Shown piece by piece: positions 9,042 through 21,812 of a stretch of 21,812 nt of DNA (positions are counted from its first letter, which is position 1; the number at the start of each line of letters is the position of its first letter). The notes beneath the pieces were generated by a model. That model was given only the letters and a program-made list of their open reading frames with translations, did no database searches and was not told the origin of the DNA. Origin of the DNA: a virus; UHGV virus genome UHGV-1651579; one strand, 5' to 3'. The translations under genes were made by a program, and so were the position numbers.

Positions 9042-9281
9042 TTATGATTTCGGATTTGACGAAAAGCAGGTTTGCGTCGTTGTCATCGTCGACCGTACTG
9101 AAGTGGCACACTGAATTTGGCCGTCTGTAATGGGCAGATCCGGCAACTGTTTAAAAACTTCCATCTGCTCATGGATACGCAGAAACCACCTTGCCAGCTC
9201 CATCTGCTCACCGCGGGTGAGGGGATTATTCAGCGGGGACTTAACAAAAGCGGAGACTCGCTCGACAAGCAGATCATTCAT
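9042..9281 (-). CDS. hypothetical protein (79 aa)
   Basis: ATG at 9281 overlaps stop of upstream 229-aa gene by ATGA; track ORF extends to 9356. Confidence 0.45.
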   Translation of the reverse strand: MNDLLVERVSAFVKSPLNNPLTRGEQMELARWFLRIHEQMEVFKQLPDLPITDGQIQCATSVRSTMTTTQTCFSSNPKS

Positions 9282-9967
9282 GCCGCGCACCTCTCTGCTT
9301 TCTCCTGCAATTCGCGAACGAACTCGACCAAAGAGCCACCTGGCGGGATCTGGCATTCCTCAACCAACTGGAAGTAGATGTCTGCGGCCGCGCGTGTGTT
9401 CGAGCCTTTGTTTAGCTGCTCTTCGCGCAGCGCATCACGTTCATTAATCAAACGGACGCACTCGCCGTTACGCTGATCCACAACGGCCTCAAGTTCAGCG
9501 ATACGTTCGCCAGGAGTCTTACCTTCTTTGCGTTGAATGGTGACGGTAAACTCACCCATTTCAGGAACGTCGTACTCCAGCTCCAGGTAGTTTCTGGCCC
9601 CGCTACGAACAAACTCACCGGCAAACATGGTTGCGAACATCGCAGAGGCCATTTCACCTTTAAACAGAGACTCCAAATCTAACGGAGTGCCGGCAGCCAG
9701 AGCCTCTTTTGCTGTGTCCATTGCGTCCATGAACCGGTCAAACTCATTGGCGCATTTCTCAAGGTCTCTCCACTGCTGGCTCCAACGGCGTGCCAGATGG
9801 TCGATAAAAACCTGCGCCGATTCATCAAAGTTACCTTCGAACGTCACAAGCTCCTTGTCGATTTTGATGGTTCCGGCAGGCGCGCCTGCATTCCCCTGTA
9901 GCACTAAATTAAATGGCAGCTTCGCCTGATCAACGCTGGCGAATGTAATTCTCGATTTTTCGCTCAT
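9278..9967 (-). CDS. hypothetical protein (229 aa)
   Basis: ATG at 9967 with GAGG 7 nt upstream; P2 box 10010-10023 in its promoter. Confidence 0.6.
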   Translation of the reverse strand: MSEKSRITFASVDQAKLPFNLVLQGNAGAPAGTIKIDKELVTFEGNFDESAQVFIDHLARRWSQQWRDLEKCANEFDRFMDAMDTAKEALAAGTPLDLESLFKGEMASAMFATMFAGEFVRSGARNYLELEYDVPEMGEFTVTIQRKEGKTPGERIAELEAVVDQRNGECVRLINERDALREEQLNKGSNTRAAADIYFQLVEECQIPPGGSLVEFVRELQEKAERCAA

Positions 9968-10009: not shown

Positions 10010-10023
10010 GGTAAGTATTTACC
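10010..10023 (-). promoter_or_regulatory. P2 box copy 2 (GGTAAGTATTTACC)
   Basis: 14-bp palindrome with one central mismatch, 3 nt after MTase stop and about 40 nt upstream of ATG 9967. Confidence 0.55.
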
Positions 10024-11723: not shown

Positions 11724-11740
11724 AAACAAATTGTTTTTTT
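11724..11740 (-). promoter_or_regulatory. P1 box copy l (AAACAAATTGTTTTTTT) within cassette 11712-11775
   Basis: followed by GTTGGTGTTATTATTTC; 13 nt upstream of ATG 11711. Confidence 0.6.
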
Positions 11741-11882
11741 GTTGGTGTTATTATTTCAAAATTGAGTAGGTAATAAATAAGGATTCACAAGCTGCACAGG
11801 GAGATACTTATAAGTTTATTGAGTTTGCTTAATACTCAACTGACAACTACACGTAAGATATTTGTCGCCTCCTTATTGAGTA

Positions 11883-12926: not shown

Positions 12927-12940
12927 AAACAAGTTGTTTT
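12927..12940 (-). promoter_or_regulatory. P1 box copy m (AAACAAGTTGTTTT)
   Basis: about 20 nt upstream of ATG 12906. Confidence 0.6.
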
Positions 12941-13114
12941 CTTAATTGTTTAATTGTCTCAAATTCTATGATGATGTGAAGAGTTGCATTAAGGCGAAAA
13001 GACACGCAAAAGGAAAAATCAGGCATACCAGACATTTATTTAAAGTGGCATTCATAGCAGAATGTTCTCATTGCCGAAGTTCTATTCAGACGTCAGTCCC
13101 TAAGAGAGAGCAAA

Positions 13115-14941: not shown

Positions 14942-14955
14942 GGTAAATACTTACT
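14942..14955 (-). promoter_or_regulatory. P2 box copy 3 (GGTAAATACTTACT)
   Basis: overlaps stop codon of RNase HI gene; TATAAT-like hexamer immediately downstream on minus strand. Confidence 0.5.
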
Positions 14956-16136: not shown

Positions 16137-16150
16137 GGTAAGTACTTACC
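16137..16150 (-). promoter_or_regulatory. P2 box copy 4 (GGTAAGTACTTACC, perfect palindrome)
   Basis: just 3' of CDS 16153-16383; faces about 575 bp without a credible ORF before rnhA. Confidence 0.55.
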
Positions 16151-17137: not shown

Positions 17138-17151
17138 AGTAAATACTTATC
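17138..17151 (-). promoter_or_regulatory. P2 box copy 5 (AGTAAATACTTATC)
   Basis: about 165 nt upstream of the truncated Dam fragment. Confidence 0.4.
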
Positions 17152-18057: not shown

Positions 18058-18253
18058 AATTCTTGTTCAAATAATTTTGTCCGGGGCAACGATAACGGAT
18101 AAGGCGCACCGGAGTTTGCAAATGCCTGTTTACTTATTCACTTTATTCACAGGCCCGATCCAATATTTAGATCCCCAGAGAGATCCTACAGAAGATCAAA
18201 AGAGATCCCCGATCGTCTCCAGCGCTTGCGGTTACTGGCTTGAGAAGGGGTTA

Positions 18254-18360
18254 CTATCCACTATAGGGAGCAAAATAACCACTGTAGAGAGCATAATAAC
18301 CGCTATGAAGAGCAAAACAACCTCTCTGGAGAGTAGTCGGTATCCACTGTAGTGAGTAGG
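18254..18360 (+). repeat. RepFIB-type iterons, upstream cluster 1 (5 units)
   Basis: about 21-bp units (T/A)A(T/A)CCACTGTAG(T/A)GAG; block 18115-18360 duplicated at 18485-18770. Confidence 0.8.
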
Positions 18361-18647
18361 AGACAATGTTTTAACTGGATAACTCCGAGCCTGTTTTTCT
18401 GCGGCAGATGGCTGATATTCTTGGAAATATTGTAAATTTTGCGTTGCGGCGTGTTTATTTCGATCACACATTATCCCCAGAAGGGGAGTGATGCCTGATT
18501 TTGTAATTATCTGATTTTTATACACAGGCCCGATCCAGTAATTCAGATCCCTGTTAGAACCAAAGAGAACCACAAAGACCCAAAGAGATCCCCGGCCCCT
18601 GCAAACCGTTGTGCCACATGGCTTTAGAGGTTATCGATATCCACTAT

Positions 18648-18765
18648 AGTGAGAATAACAACCACTATAGAGAGTAAATCAACCACTATGGAGAGTAGAA
18701 AAACCGCTGTAGGCGGTAGGATAACCACTGTGATGGGTGCTACTATCCACTGTAATCAGTAAAGG
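18648..18765 (+). repeat. RepFIB-type iterons, upstream cluster 2 (6 units)
   Basis: same core as cluster 1. Confidence 0.8.
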
Positions 18766-18799: not shown

Positions 18800-19855
18800 A
18801 TGAGCGTAAACGACAATAAAAACATTGCGATAAGCGAAGCATTTTCCGAAACAGACAAAAAGACCGGCGAAGTTGTTACGTTAGTTCCTAACACCAACAA
18901 CACAGTTCAGCCTGTTGCTCTGATGCGTCTTGGTCTCTTCGTTCCGACGCTGAAATCGACATCCAGGGGTAGAAAGGGGCAAATGGTCTCTATGGACGCC
19001 TCCGCTGAACTCAAACAGCTGTCTCTGGCCAAAGCCGAAGGGTACGAGGATATAAGGATTGCTGGTCTTCGTCTTGATATGGATAACGATTTCAAAACAT
19101 GGGTGGGCATCATCCACGCGTTCGCCAAGCACAAGGTTGTTGGTGACACCGTCACGTTGCCGTTCGTCGAGTTCGTCAGACTTTGTGGCATACCAACAGC
19201 CAGATCGTCCGCGAAGTTACGTAAGCGCCTGGACAGCTCTCTAAGTCGTATCGCCACAAACACCATCTCATTCCGCAGCAAAGGCTCTGAAGAGTATTAC
19301 GTTACGCACCTTGTGCAGACGGCAAAGTACAGTACCAAGAATGACACGGTCGAACTGAAGGCCGATCCTAAGATTTTCGAACTTTACCAGTTCGACAAAA
19401 AGGTGCTTTTGCAACTTCGGGCCATCAACGAACTCTCCAGAAAAGAATCCGCGCAGGCGCTCTACACCTTCATTGAAAGTTTGCCACCAGACCCGGCGCC
19501 AATCTCATTGGCTCGCTTACGCGCCAGACTTAACTTAACCAGCCGCACCATTACCCAGAATGCGACAGTCAGGAAGGCGATGGAGCAGCTGCGAGAGATC
19601 GGCTATCTCGATTACACTGAAGTGAAACGCGGCAGCTCGGTCTACTTCGTCATCCACTATAGACGGCCGAAGTTACGTTCGGCACTGCCGCCATCTATGG
19701 CTACGCCTGAAGAGCCAGAAGATATTTTGCCAGGTGATGATCCGGAGGACATTATCGATGTTGCCCCTGAAGAAAAAGACGGGGAAATGGTCATGTTGAG
19801 CAAGGAAGAACTAGCGATTCTCGAAGAGCTGCGCAAGGCAAAGGCTCGCAAATAG
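18800..19855 (+). CDS. repA: RepA replication initiator, RepFIB family (351 aa)
   Basis: recalled similarity to RepFIB RepA ([67 protein letters not shown]); iterons on both sides. Confidence 0.85.
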
Positions 19856-19879
19856 CCCAACCACTGTAGAGAGTAAAAA

Positions 19880-19909
19880 GGCTCACTATCTACTGTAGTG
19901 AGCCTTTTT
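19880..19909 (+). terminator. rho-independent terminator of repA (GGCTCACTA-N7-TAGTGAGCC + T5)
   Basis: 9-bp stem followed by TTTTT, 25 nt after repA stop; stem is itself iteron-like. Confidence 0.7.
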
Positions 19910-20351
19910 GTTTATCGGAAATGCAATATCCACTGTAGTGAGTAAAAGAAACCGAAGAATAACCACTGTAGGCAGTGCGCACAAATCGCGAAGTAAATGT
20001 TAGTGGTTGCAAACATAGATAAAACAAGGGCTGAGAGGTTAGCGGTCACTGGGTATCTCTGTTAAGTCTACTCTCTACAGCGGTTATCGTCGCTCTCCTC
20101 ATTGTTGACTATCCACTGTGAAGAGCAGAATTGGCTGACTTGACCTCTATCCACTGTAGTGAGTGGATATCCGTTTAAAACAGCGAAGATTTACTCTCCA
20201 TAGTGGATATCCGCTGGAGGGGGCATTCCATCACTCTCTATAGTGGTTGTTTGTAGTCAGTGAACGCCTGTTTACTCACTACAGTGTATAGCGACCCCGA
20301 TAATCACCAATTTACTCACTGCAGTGGATAGTTGATATCGTGGCAGGGGGG

Positions 20352-20493
20352 TTGCTCACTACAGTGGTTGGGGTGCATACCCGAATGGTGTTTTACTCAC
20401 TACAGTGGTTGGGGTGCATACCCGAATGGTGTTCTACTCACTACAGTGGTTGGGGTGCATACCTGAAGGGTGTTCTACTCGCTACAGTGGTTA
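20352..20493. repeat. 41-bp tandem repeat, 3.5 units (TTACTCACTACAGTGGTTGGGGTGCATACCCGAATGGTGTT)
   Basis: period 41 bp measured between CTCAC starts at 20355, 20396, 20437, 20478; each unit contains one iteron core. Confidence 0.8.
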
Positions 20494-20546
20494 TGAGCCG
20501 GATTCACACGCGGTGAGCTGGCTACTCACCGCAGTGGATAGTGTTA

Positions 20547-20762
20547 TCAGTGGATTTTCTTCAGCAGACCCCAGAGTGTCCCGGCCTTCGTTGCGAGCTT
20601 ACCTGTTTCCGGATCGTACATGCGCCATTCACGTCGCTGGTGGACAATATACCCATCTTCACGTTCCAGTCGTTCCAGTACGCCGGACTGCTTGAACCCT
20701 TTGGCACGCCAGTAGCCGCTTGTTTTTTCGATTTCCAGACCTGTCAGTGTAACCGCCATCAA
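20547..20762 (-). CDS. hypothetical protein (71 aa)
   Basis: ATG overlaps stop of upstream gene by ATGA. Confidence 0.5.
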   Translation of the reverse strand: MMAVTLTGLEIEKTSGYWRAKGFKQSGVLERLEREDGYIVHQRREWRMYDPETGKLATKAGTLWGLLKKIH

Positions 20763-21094
20763 CTAATCTCCTTGCAGTCATCGAAAAGGTAGCTGTCGTT
20801 CTTCGCGTGAACGCCGTATACATCACCCGATTTGTTGTAAACGAACCTATCTTTACCTACGCCAGATAGTTCGCCGTTACGTTTAGTGAGAAACGGGGAA
20901 GACAGGACACGATTATCGCGTACCACATAAAACTGTTCGCCGCGGTCCACAACCATCGCGCCGTAATTAGCTTTGACGACGTTGCGGATCAGGCCGTTTT
21001 TCGCTTCGACCACAAACATTTCGCACTCATAGACATGTGTGTCCGCAAAGACGGGGAGAGTGAGCAGCGCCAGTACCAGGGCTGTTTTCTTCAT
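20759..21094 (-). CDS. secreted hypothetical protein (111 aa)
   Basis: signal peptide MKKTALVLALLTLPVFA; two Cys in mature part; ATG overlaps stop of upstream small ORF by ATGA. Confidence 0.55.
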   Translation of the reverse strand: MKKTALVLALLTLPVFADTHVYECEMFVVEAKNGLIRNVVKANYGAMVVDRGEQFYVVRDNRVLSSPFLTKRNGELSGVGKDRFVYNKSGDVYGVHAKNDSYLFDDCKEIS

Positions 21095-21270
21095 GCCACG
21101 ACTCCTTTGAAAACGCCTAATGCTGAGTCGAAGACCAGTACTACGGCCAGCGCATTGATCATCACATCATTAACAGGCGCCAGCGCTTTACGGATTGCCC
21201 CTGTGAAGATGCAGTCGAGCACAAAGGCTATCGAGATAATAAGTAACGTGATATCTAATGAAATTTTCAT
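21091..21270 (-). CDS. possible small membrane protein (59 aa, MKISLDITLLIISIAFVLDCIFTGAIRKALAPVNDVMINALAVVLVFDSALGVFKGVVA)
   Basis: hand-translated; below ORF-track cutoff; stop overlaps ATG of 20759-21094 by ATGA; weak RBS. Confidence 0.3.
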   Translation of the reverse strand: MKISLDITLLIISIAFVLDCIFTGAIRKALAPVNDVMINALAVVLVFDSALGVFKGVVA

Positions 21271-21309
21271 GATAGGTAAATGCTAACTTATATATTTTTG
21301 CTGTAAATA

Positions 21310-21585
21310 TCACTTAAAAGTGCTGATACCCAAAATGCGCTCAAGATGGGCCGCGTCTTCATCGCTTACCAGCATTGTGTCGTCAACGTACCAGCAGCTA
21401 CCGTTGTGCCAACAAACACCGTCATCATCGATATAAATAGAATCCGCATCCATTCCTGTGTATTCAACTAGATTGCGTTCAATTGCCGCTTGAATTTCTT
21501 CATCGTTCAGCCCGTCGCACTTGATCATGAACAACGGGTAAACGTCATAGTCGGTACTAGATGAAATGCGAACCAAAGTCTTCAT
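21310..21585 (-). CDS. hypothetical protein (91 aa)
   Basis: ATG 21585 with AAGGA about 9 nt upstream (track ORF extends to 21648); P2 box 21602-21615 in promoter. Confidence 0.5.
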   Translation of the reverse strand: MKTLVRISSSTDYDVYPLFMIKCDGLNDEEIQAAIERNLVEYTGMDADSIYIDDDGVCWHNGSCWYVDDTMLVSDEDAAHLERILGISTFK

Positions 21586-21601
21586 GTGTTTTTTCCTTGT
21601 T

Positions 21602-21615
21602 GGTAAGTACTTATC
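21602..21615 (-). promoter_or_regulatory. P2 box copy 6 (GGTAAGTACTTATC)
   Basis: about 17 nt upstream of ATG 21585, immediately after a TAAGAT -10-like hexamer; followed by CAACAAGGAAAAAACAC resembling the P1 cassette leader. Confidence 0.55.
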
Positions 21616-21653
21616 TATCTTAATGGGCGCTATAAGGCGCACAATCATTGTGT

Positions 21654-21812
21654 TCAGGCTGGTGGAAAGAACTTCTCCAGCGTGTGGTTGATAGCCTTAT
21701 CAATGTGCATCAGGTGCCAGACGACCATATCTTTGCTTCCAATGCCGCGAGTGTAGATGAAGTGGTCAACAAAAACTGGCCACCGAGTTAGAGTTTTTCC
21801 AGTATCGATTTT
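21654..21812 (-). CDS. 3' end of a gene entering from the right window edge (last 52 codons)
   Basis: open minus-strand frame from 21812 to TGA at 21654-21656; not in ORF track because its start lies outside the window. Confidence 0.35.
   Translation of the reverse strand, partial: KIDTGKTLTRWPVFVDHFIYTRGIGSKDMVVWHLMHIDKAINHTLEKFFPPA

Follow-up and report, generated by a model that had tools for sequence, protein, structure and literature searches.

The window analysed here, a 21,812-nucleotide (nt) stretch of the virus genome UHGV-1651579, is the replication region of an SSU5-type phage-plasmid of Escherichia coli, and it carries a cassette of four small minus-strand genes which we name, by the length of their products, g91, g59, g111 and g70 (Table 1). 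We found that this cassette is probably built as one gene plus three, with g91 under a promoter operated by a dispersed palindrome (P2) and the trio g59-g111-g70 having an additional promoter of its own, rather than as the single four-gene operon under one P2 promoter that an original prediction, made from the letters alone, had described. The trio encodes a predicted inner-membrane peptide, a predicted secreted protein and a small basic protein that, judged by its alignments, is a full-length homologue of phage P1 Cra. We tentatively propose that it is an early envelope module, controlled by a repressor and serving exclusion or protection, a reading that we favour without being persuaded of it.

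Table 1. Features of the four-gene cassette and its surroundings, in window coordinates (aa, amino acids; pI, isoelectric point; IS, insertion sequence)
Feature	Position	Strand	Remarks
g91, acidic cytoplasmic protein, 91 aa, pI 4.05	21310-21585	-	SSU5_065 / CYRAN_59; PHROG 2209
g59, predicted inner-membrane peptide, 59 aa	21091-21270	-	SSU5_066 / CYRAN_60; PHROG 2535
g111, predicted secreted protein, 111 aa	20759-21094	-	SSU5_067 / CYRAN_61; PHROG 2077
g70, basic 70-aa protein, pI 9.6	20547-20759	-	SSU5_068 / CYRAN_62; PHROG 804
g91 promoter-like region	21599-21644	-	-35 TTGTGC 21639-21644, 16-nt spacer, -10 TAAGAT 21617-21622
Trio promoter-like element	21272-21307	-	-35 TTTACA 21302-21307, 16-nt spacer, -10 TAGCAT 21280-21285; promoter scan
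repA	18800-19855	+	flanked by iteron arrays
Iteron array upstream of repA	18253-18765		repeat analysis
Iteron array downstream of repA, adjoined by the cassette	19856-20541		repeat families D4-D7
GC-rich hairpin GCGGTGAGC...GCTCACCGC	20507-20536	-	directly 3' of the g70 stop; overlaps the last RepA iteron
3' remnant of SSU5_064 / CYRAN_58 homologue, DUF7238 type	21654-21756	-	stop TGA 21654-21656; SSU5/Cyrano alignment
End of IS911/IS3-family insertion sequence	21757-21812		boundary +/-1-2 nt

The case for a separate trio promoter starts from the 39-nt spacer between g91 and g59, which holds an element whose -10 hexamer is overlapped by the P2-like 20-mer ATAAGTTAGCATTTACCTAT (21272-21291); its core, ATAAGTTAGTATCTACCTAT, is a P2-like palindrome that matches the 20-base-pair (bp) form of P2 at 16 of 20 positions. 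Across the loci compared, which come from Salmonella, Escherichia, Kluyvera, Yersinia, Buttiauxella and Klebsiella, the arrangement TTTACA-N15-17-TAG(C/T)AT plus palindrome is near-invariant, and in the Klebsiella loci it has been kept though the upstream gene differs or has decayed and synonymous sites are saturated. In the metagenomic deep lineage L021, where the module proteins are 24-61% identical, the core of the element is still identical at 19 of 20 positions to the version in Salmonella phage SSU5. The element ends 1 nt before the ATG of g59, which accounts for the lack of a Shine-Dalgarno sequence there and predicts a g59 mRNA with little or no leader; L011 and L021 have 15-17 nt after this element, a Shine-Dalgarno sequence among them. 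In two Klebsiella loci that retain the trio, g91 was not found by tblastn, and the sequence 5' of g59 in L009 resembles a decayed g91 3' end. No PhoP or LexA boxes were seen in the g59 promoter element, which was inspected by eye only.

Expression of the cassette could be followed in E. coli LF82 carrying Escherichia phage Cyrano, for which values are available as log2(fpkm+5), with fpkm standing for fragments per kilobase per million mapped reads (PMC9928086, S1 Table). Between stationary phase in lysogeny broth (LB) and 6 h in THP1 macrophages, the g59 counterpart CYRAN_60 rose from 2.3 to 8.4-8.8, the g111 counterpart CYRAN_61 from 2.3-2.8 to 8.3-8.6 and the g70 counterpart CYRAN_62 from 3.7 to 8.8-9.0; the g91 counterpart CYRAN_59 moved from 2.9-3.5 to 4.8-5.1, and the upstream gene CYRAN_58 from 2.3-2.7 to 3.9-4.2 (PMC9928086). 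By these values the Cyrano trio is up about 40-90-fold in macrophages, against about 4-fold for the g91 counterpart and little change in most lytic genes. Replication and structural genes of Cyrano are mostly low in macrophages, CYRAN_46 and the membrane/stomatin-like SPFH pair CYRAN_56-57 go up with the trio, and virions do not rise above background, from which the authors infer that the lytic cycle is repressed (PMC9928086). The pattern looks like a partial, abortive induction programme. The integrase gene CYRAN_44 and the tail-region genes CYRAN_12-13 are also up in macrophages (PMC9928086). Since the promoter-like element is conserved, g91 is missing or degraded in the Klebsiella relatives and the trio of the relative Cyrano is expressed independently, a 1 + 3 organisation is the probable one, and transcription of all four genes from the P2 promoter alone becomes doubtful.

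The operator-like palindrome claimed upstream of g91 was, in turn, upheld. Taking the 'P2' of the original prediction to be the GGTAAGTACTTACC family, which is an assumption on our part, we located GGTAAGTACTTATC at 21602-21615, one mismatch from GGTAAGTACTTACC and 16 nt 5' of the g91 ATG, and the enrichment of the family is real: there are seven GGTAAGTACTTACC sites at <=3 mismatches in the window (0.46 expected) and four sites of the 20-bp form ATAGGTAAGTACTTACCTAT (0 expected). The layout before g91 runs from TAAGAT through a single base to the palindrome, which covers the likely start region (14-mer 21602-21615; 20-mer 21599-21618), and then the ribosome-binding site, and the half-site that adjoins this ribosome-binding site is kept in relatives, with the whole copy at 1 mismatch here, 3 in SSU5 and 4 in Cyrano. 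Each minus-strand P2 copy of good quality stands just 3' of a -10-like hexamer. Another palindrome in the promoter interval of the original prediction that might have been meant by 'P2', CACAATCATTGTG at 21640-21652, was set aside, having only one occurrence, which is chance level. Further P2 sites in the window lie at 3216-3229, 10010-10023, 14942-14955, 16137-16150 and 17138-17151; two of them are 41-42 nt 5' of the minus-strand ORFs (open reading frames) 2779-3174 and 9278-9967, and within 180 nt downstream of the perfect copy at 16137 there is no ORF of >=80 aa.

The same family is found across Cyrano, where 98 kb were scanned and gave 16 P2 sites against about 4 expected, almost all of them intergenic. 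They precede, among others, genes for the tail fibre, holin, SSB, SbcD and ribonucleotide reductase, as well as thyX and dam, and a one-mismatch copy (OV696614.1, 42606-42619) lies between the putative repressor gene CYRAN_45 and the divergent CYRAN_46. One sequence thus stands at many promoter regions including the immunity region, as in a dispersed operator-like regulon, and the simplest reading is that P2 would be the operator of the element's lysogeny repressor, dispersed around the genome. Phage P1 offers a parallel: its C1 operators are asymmetric 17-mers scattered before many lytic genes. The P2 family resembles them in being one operator-like sequence present in multiple copies before unrelated lytic genes and in the immunity region, but differs in being a symmetric palindrome of 14-20 bp; one of the P1 operators (Oref) is annotated in the P1 record. 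A second dispersed promoter-like family occurs in the window, a palindrome AAACAAATTGTTT followed by TTGTTGGTGTTATTA, with 10 copies between 1486 and 12955 (e.g. 7257-7285, 11724-11752 and 12927-12955); it is probably what the original prediction called 'P1', and looks like another regulon of the element.

All four ORFs, whose positions had been given correctly save for the start of the last, are real protein-coding genes under purifying selection and not chance frames, because they keep a constant length in relatives and show ratios of nonsynonymous to synonymous substitution (dN/dS) of 0.04-0.54. Each gene has an identical length in seven to nine loci, and the lengths of 276, 180, 336 and 213 nt are shared with SSU5 and Cyrano. 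The dN/dS ranges are 0.08-0.13 for g91, 0.33-0.54 for g59, 0.17-0.38 for g111 and 0.04-0.12 for g70, which is the most conserved of the four. Conservation of the 59-aa ORF had been named beforehand as a test on which the prediction could fail; the gene is real, with 59 codons in nine of the nine loci aligned (the window and L003-L010). It had also been presented as an unlisted frame, and is in fact already annotated by the Prokaryotic Genome Annotation Pipeline (PGAP) and in both phage records (WP_023135695.1, SSU5_066, CYRAN_60). The last gene had been read as 71 aa long with an ATGA overlap to g111; positions 20762-20759 actually read TTGA, the true overlap is 1 nt (TGATG), and the product has 70 aa from the ATG at 20759, which is the start of g70 in the RefSeq, SSU5 and Cyrano annotations and in distant relatives. 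The 91-aa form of g91 is preferred to a longer, 112-aa frame, as the 5' extension is not conserved in Cyrano and the public annotation has 91 aa; the 91-aa start is preceded by the Shine-Dalgarno-like AAGGA, and AGGAG stands 9-10 nt 5' of the g111 and g70 starts. Nor do the genes lack a recognisable family, as had been stated, g70 being related to Cra and all four matching PHROG families (E 1e-33 to 1e-62). These families, 2209, 2535, 2077 and 804, are all of unknown function; scans of the four proteins against Pfam, NCBIfam and PADLOC gave nothing usable, and none of the papers searched reports work on their function. As sequence, then, the cassette has already been catalogued, with its function uncharacterised.

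Translational coupling of the membrane peptide, the secreted protein and the small basic cytoplasmic protein is well supported, in that the overlapping junctions are kept in relatives. The ATGA at 21091-21094 that joins g59 to g111 is confirmed by reading the sequence; in relatives the junctions are TAATG, GTGA and TAATG, with one 8-nt gap in L011, and the g111/g70 overlap, TGATG here, is TAATG in L021 and L022. Coupling persists even where the module proteins are only 19-61% identical. In the deep SSU5-like lineages L011, L021 and L022, whose g111 homologues have 32-35% identity, the order of a g91-like gene, a small membrane peptide, a barrel and a 70-aa protein is retained; it follows a DUF7238 gene in L011 and L021 and a Band_7/SPFH gene in L021 and L022. 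A Rep3 initiator adjoins the cassette in L011 and L022, and the L021 contig ends just past the 70-aa gene. SSU5_065-068 and CYRAN_59-62 share the genes, their order, lengths and junctions, and the place beside repA and its iterons; the window differs from both in that an IS911-type element cuts the upstream DUF7238-type gene 170 bp above g91. A chromosomal Cra-like match (L014) is no more than a decayed copy of this cassette and adds no information. The cassette is a conserved accessory part of SSU5-type phage-plasmids, located between the DUF7238/SPFH genes and the RepA iterons.

The description of g111 as a secreted protein with two cysteines stands. The protein begins with MKKTALVLALLTLPVFA followed by DT, and residues 1-17 (21044-21094) have the features of a signal peptide, MKK, then TALVLALLTLPVF, then an alanine before DT; cleavage is predicted after VFA, Ala17 is invariant, and the first cysteine is residue 24, without a lipobox. 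Throughout the family Cys24, Phe55, Ser66 and Cys107 do not vary and Pro67 hardly does, and the family signature is SP.L / F(D/E)xC. The mature chain of 94 aa is modelled as a closed all-beta barrel with a predicted local distance difference test score (pLDDT) of 86.6, in which Cys24 and Cys107, near the two ends of the mature chain, suggest a disulfide lock. Overall g111 models as a small disulfide-bonded periplasmic beta-barrel of non-specific fold, without a diagnostic relative. The family is sparse: a profile search of 1.84 billion representative proteins returned only 25 members, and in the BFVD library of viral structures the closest folds are unnamed phage lipoproteins and secreted proteins. 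Profile searches of the PDB with g91, g111 and the broad g111 family gave only low-complexity beta-hairpin or propeller noise, and when 15 diverse family members were scanned against Pfam, the only matches were noise confined to one member each, T4_Spackle (E 0.016) among them. Known small periplasmic barrels (PliC/MliC, ACP lysozyme inhibitors, YceI-like proteins, Cap15) are 4-16% identical with no family-model match, and the g111 family is set apart from them by its own invariant cysteine pair and the SP.L / F(D/E)xC signature. Cap15 is a cytoplasmic nucleotide-binding barrel fused to transmembrane helices in operons of the cyclic-oligonucleotide-based antiphage signalling system (CBASS); this identity was rejected for g111, which has a predicted signal peptide, 5% identity, no PADLOC match and no nearby cyclase gene.

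Beyond the SSU5 group the barrel is found by itself or together with other small envelope proteins, and its positions are typical accessory sites of mobile elements. In the lambdoid phage OL396571.1 (L012, 3771-4497) a g111 homologue stands at the head of the early-left operon, divergent from cro, and is joined through 1-nt overlaps both to an upstream gene for a 76-aa cytoplasmic protein and to a downstream gene for a 46-aa membrane peptide; the 76-aa protein was considered as a Cra relative and dismissed, since only its last six residues align (LLKKVH, against LLKKIH in g70; E 0.059). Another homologue lies within a phage tail-gene cluster in a moron position, and another adjoins a P4-like primase. 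A remote member (E 1.5e-6) occurs in an integrase-flanked island in L015 (2676-4711; GCA_041954745.1, JAVAYG010000003.1) and also in L016. In L015 it is three genes downstream of a gene with a Tlde1 domain (type VI L,D-transpeptidase effector-like), with genes for two other small proteins alongside, a membrane one of 104 aa and a secreted one of 117 aa, and the island may be an array of periplasmic immunity-like proteins.

In the peptide g59 a basic loop, RKALAPVN, lies between two hydrophobic segments (Kyte-Doolittle 19-residue maximum 2.33), and by the positive-inside rule both termini of the peptide would be periplasmic. All nine aligned loci have Asp19-Cys20 in the first segment. The loop motif recurs at the same position in the 45-51-aa peptides of L011, L021 and L022; an acidic residue in helix 1 is shared by L021 and L022 alone. 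The link among these small peptides is only the loop motif (R/K)(R/K)A(L/F)(A/E)P, and BLASTP did not align g59 with the 45-aa L011 peptide. Among the PADLOC defence-protein models no genuine match was found to any of the four proteins, a typeIV_Cas5 match to the hydrophobic g59 (E 0.0015) being spurious. For g91, the best AlphaFold2 model reaches a pLDDT of 87.7, and the other four models are poor.

The relationship of g70 to P1 Cra (73 aa) was detected in a tblastn search of 2.3 Gb of phage records, at 42.6% identity across residues 2-69 with E 2e-5, and by pairwise BLASTP (43% identity over the full length, E 2e-13); g70 matches PHROG 804 at E 6e-34, and the SSU5 and Cyrano annotations already link it to Cra. 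Such annotations go no further than 'putative cre associated function' or 'putative regulatory protein'. The two proteins are alike in the GYWRAKGF motif, size, basic character, carriage by a phage-plasmid and a neighbouring DNA site for plasmid maintenance. Their settings differ: P1 cra (207-428) lies directly upstream of cre, contains the cre promoters and has no exported or membrane partner, whereas g70 is the last coupled gene of a trio beside the RepA iterons. No cre was found near g70, either here or in SSU5-type loci, so an association with cre does not extend to it.

On this basis the idea of an envelope-acting module keeps its anatomy of membrane, secreted and cytoplasmic products, and the role is a reasonable conjecture; what has to be revised is the unit, which is 1 + 3, and the last gene, which belongs to the Cra family. 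A suggested link to conjugation finds no support, SSU5-type elements being non-conjugative phage-plasmids. In the mechanism that we propose, the P2 palindromes would act as dispersed operators of the lysogeny repressor, as the C1 operators do in P1, and the weaker variant operator before g59 would put the trio among the earliest genes to be derepressed. Translational coupling would then yield roughly matched amounts of a two-helix inner-membrane peptide, a periplasmic disulfide-locked barrel and a small basic cytoplasmic Cra-like protein. The barrel, at or together with the membrane peptide, might bind or block something that crosses the envelope, candidate targets being the entering DNA of a superinfecting phage or a cell-wall hydrolase that arrives from outside, and the Cra-like protein could serve as cytoplasmic partner or regulator. 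T4 Imm and Sp, T5 Llp, phi80/N15 Cor and P1 Sim are small membrane, lipoprotein or periplasmic proteins that work in the envelope against incoming phage, several of them expressed early and not in stable lysogeny. They are functional analogues only, no sequence or specific fold relationship to them having been found, and the three-gene coupled layout with a Cra-like protein has no counterpart among them. In kind, then, the trio is closest to the small phage envelope modules, without homology to them.

Several points weigh against this reading. The principal one is expression: temperate phages express their classical superinfection-exclusion genes in the lysogen, whereas transcripts of the trio in the LB-grown Cyrano lysogen are at the detection floor. 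The RNA sequencing was done on Cyrano, with proteins 64-91% identical to those here and a degenerate operator before its g91. Between g91 and g59 there is no terminator, so read-through from the g91 promoter may also give a transcript of all four genes. The transcription starts proposed for g91 and the trio, and the binding of a repressor to P2, are read from sequence; cleavage of g111 and topology of g59 were judged by inspection and hydropathy; and the searches of Pfam, NCBIfam, PADLOC and PDB sequences gave no homology diagnostic of a specific function.

The neighbourhood of g70 raises a different explanation, that the cassette is a replicon accessory, in which the Cra-like protein binds the iterons or takes part in copy control, or transcription into the iterons antisense to repA modulates replication, the envelope partners being secondary. 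All SSU5-type lineages examined have the cassette next to RepA iterons, even those whose Rep3/RepB-type initiators differ, g70 is the slowest-evolving gene (61% identity where its partners have 24-40%), P1 Cra as its sole named relative also adjoins a plasmid-maintenance site (lox-cre), and the Cyrano annotators labelled the g70 counterpart a putative regulatory protein. No canonical terminator lies between g70 and the iterons. There is, however, a conserved hairpin after the g70 stop that may end transcription: it folds at -23.3 kcal/mol (z -2.35), lacks a U tract, is kept in L003-L008 and was not called by a terminator scan, so that it is a possible 3'-end or terminator structure judged by its fold, or else cassette transcripts may run through it into the iterons, antisense to repA. 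Scans of g70 against Pfam and NCBIfam detected no DNA-binding domain, and Cra offers no known function to transfer. The Cyrano RepA mRNA goes only from about 7.0 to 8.3 log2 units while the trio rises about 40-90-fold (PMC9928086). A replicon role also leaves the coupling of g70 to an exported protein and a membrane peptide unexplained, and we consider it unlikely.

A comparably unlikely alternative takes the barrel as the active part, with g111 as a periplasmic inhibitor of, or immunity protein against, a peptidoglycan-degrading enzyme (a lysozyme, a phage tail or endolysin hydrolase, or a type VI amidase or transpeptidase), in the manner of PliC/MliC, and g59 as its tether or helper. The distant g111 relative three genes downstream of the Tlde1-domain gene, in the company of small secreted proteins, would fit such a role, as would the LprI-type lysozyme-inhibitor gene present on this same phage-plasmid backbone. 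Yet that Tlde1 gene is not adjacent and the homologue is remote (E 1.5e-6), and neither g111 nor any of the 15 family members matched a Pfam model for MliC/PliC or another inhibitor. The invariant positions of g111 (the cysteines, Phe55, Ser66-Pro67 and F-D/E-x-C) do not, moreover, appear to resemble the loop motifs of MliC/PliC.

Control of lysis timing, either by the trio modulating the holin or the membrane, as in lysis inhibition by T4 RI and RIII, or by g59 as a small holin or antiholin, strikes us as improbable. Predicted products in three compartments, two transmembrane segments in g59 as in class II holins, and expression linked to loosened prophage repression are all in keeping with it; but g59 ends in ...FKGVVA, without the charged C-terminal tail typical of holins, and the relatives have a complete holin-endolysin-Rz/Rz1 cassette elsewhere (CYRAN_22-25), about 30 kb from the g59 position. 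The trio, furthermore, is up while phage production is blocked and without matching induction of lysis genes, and there is no similarity to RI or RIII, the T4_Spackle match being at noise level in one family member. Least credible of the four is that g59 is a small membrane-depolarising toxin for post-segregational killing or abortive infection, modulated by g111 and g70: it is small and hydrophobic with a conserved acidic residue inside the first helix, and several toxin-antitoxin pairs on the backbone are strongly induced in macrophages, but it has no PADLOC or toxin-antitoxin family match, its gene order and exported partner are unlike known type I or II systems, and it is silent in stable lysogens. 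The probability left by the envelope module and these four explanations falls to something else.

A bolder form of the envelope-module proposal, which we regard as a long shot, would make g59-g111-g70 an immediate-early signalling or exclusion device spanning three compartments and coupling the state of the envelope to the choice between plasmid replication and lytic growth. The barrel would detect or block an envelope event, the peptide would relay it across the inner membrane, and the Cra-like output would bind the P2-like element, the RepA iterons or both. If this were true, it would be the first function for phage P1 Cra.

The surroundings of the cassette agree with its placement in an SSU5-type backbone. 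Positions 20300-21812 of the window are 99-100% identical to many E. coli plasmids typed as IncFIB and non-mobilizable, and the same stretch shares 88.5% of its nucleotides with SSU5 and about 72% with Cyrano. The insertion has truncated the upstream gene, of which about 34 last codons remain and whose equivalent in L011 and L021 is assigned to DUF7238; IS911-type ends in phages Sf6, SfII and SEN22 are 95.5-100% identical to window 21749-21812, and the plasmid pYLPI6a (100% query coverage) carries the same IS911/IS3 insertion. Within the iteron array next to the cassette, 20355-20492 holds three near-identical 41-bp tandem units, each an iteron plus GGGGTGCATACCCGAATGGTGTT, with a regular spacing in contrast to the array upstream of repA. 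A search of 19800-21812 against Rfam found nothing except a chance Thr_leader match (E 0.1). Elsewhere in the window, a 27-nt GC-rich palindrome, TTAAGGCCACCAGCATTGGTGGCCTTA, occurs twice, at 1639-1665 and 2111-2137, 445 nt apart and between small minus-strand ORFs; the copies are likely terminators or a repeated intergenic element.

To a phage specialist the cassette is unsurprising, a piece of well-conserved phage dark matter. Its setting gives it wider reach, as SSU5/pHCM2-type phage-plasmids occur commonly, and often with resistance genes, in clinical Escherichia, Klebsiella, Salmonella and Yersinia, and the cassette, being part of the conserved backbone beside the replication origin, is present wherever such phage-plasmids are. 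The dispersed P2 operator, together with the near-invariant variant before g59, would be useful for reading regulation in this group, and the cassette provides an entry point to the function of P1 Cra. Should the trio prove to be such an early module for the envelope or for exclusion, it would influence the set of phages and phage-plasmids that can share one cell, and its induction in macrophages in Cyrano may mean an altered cell surface during infection.

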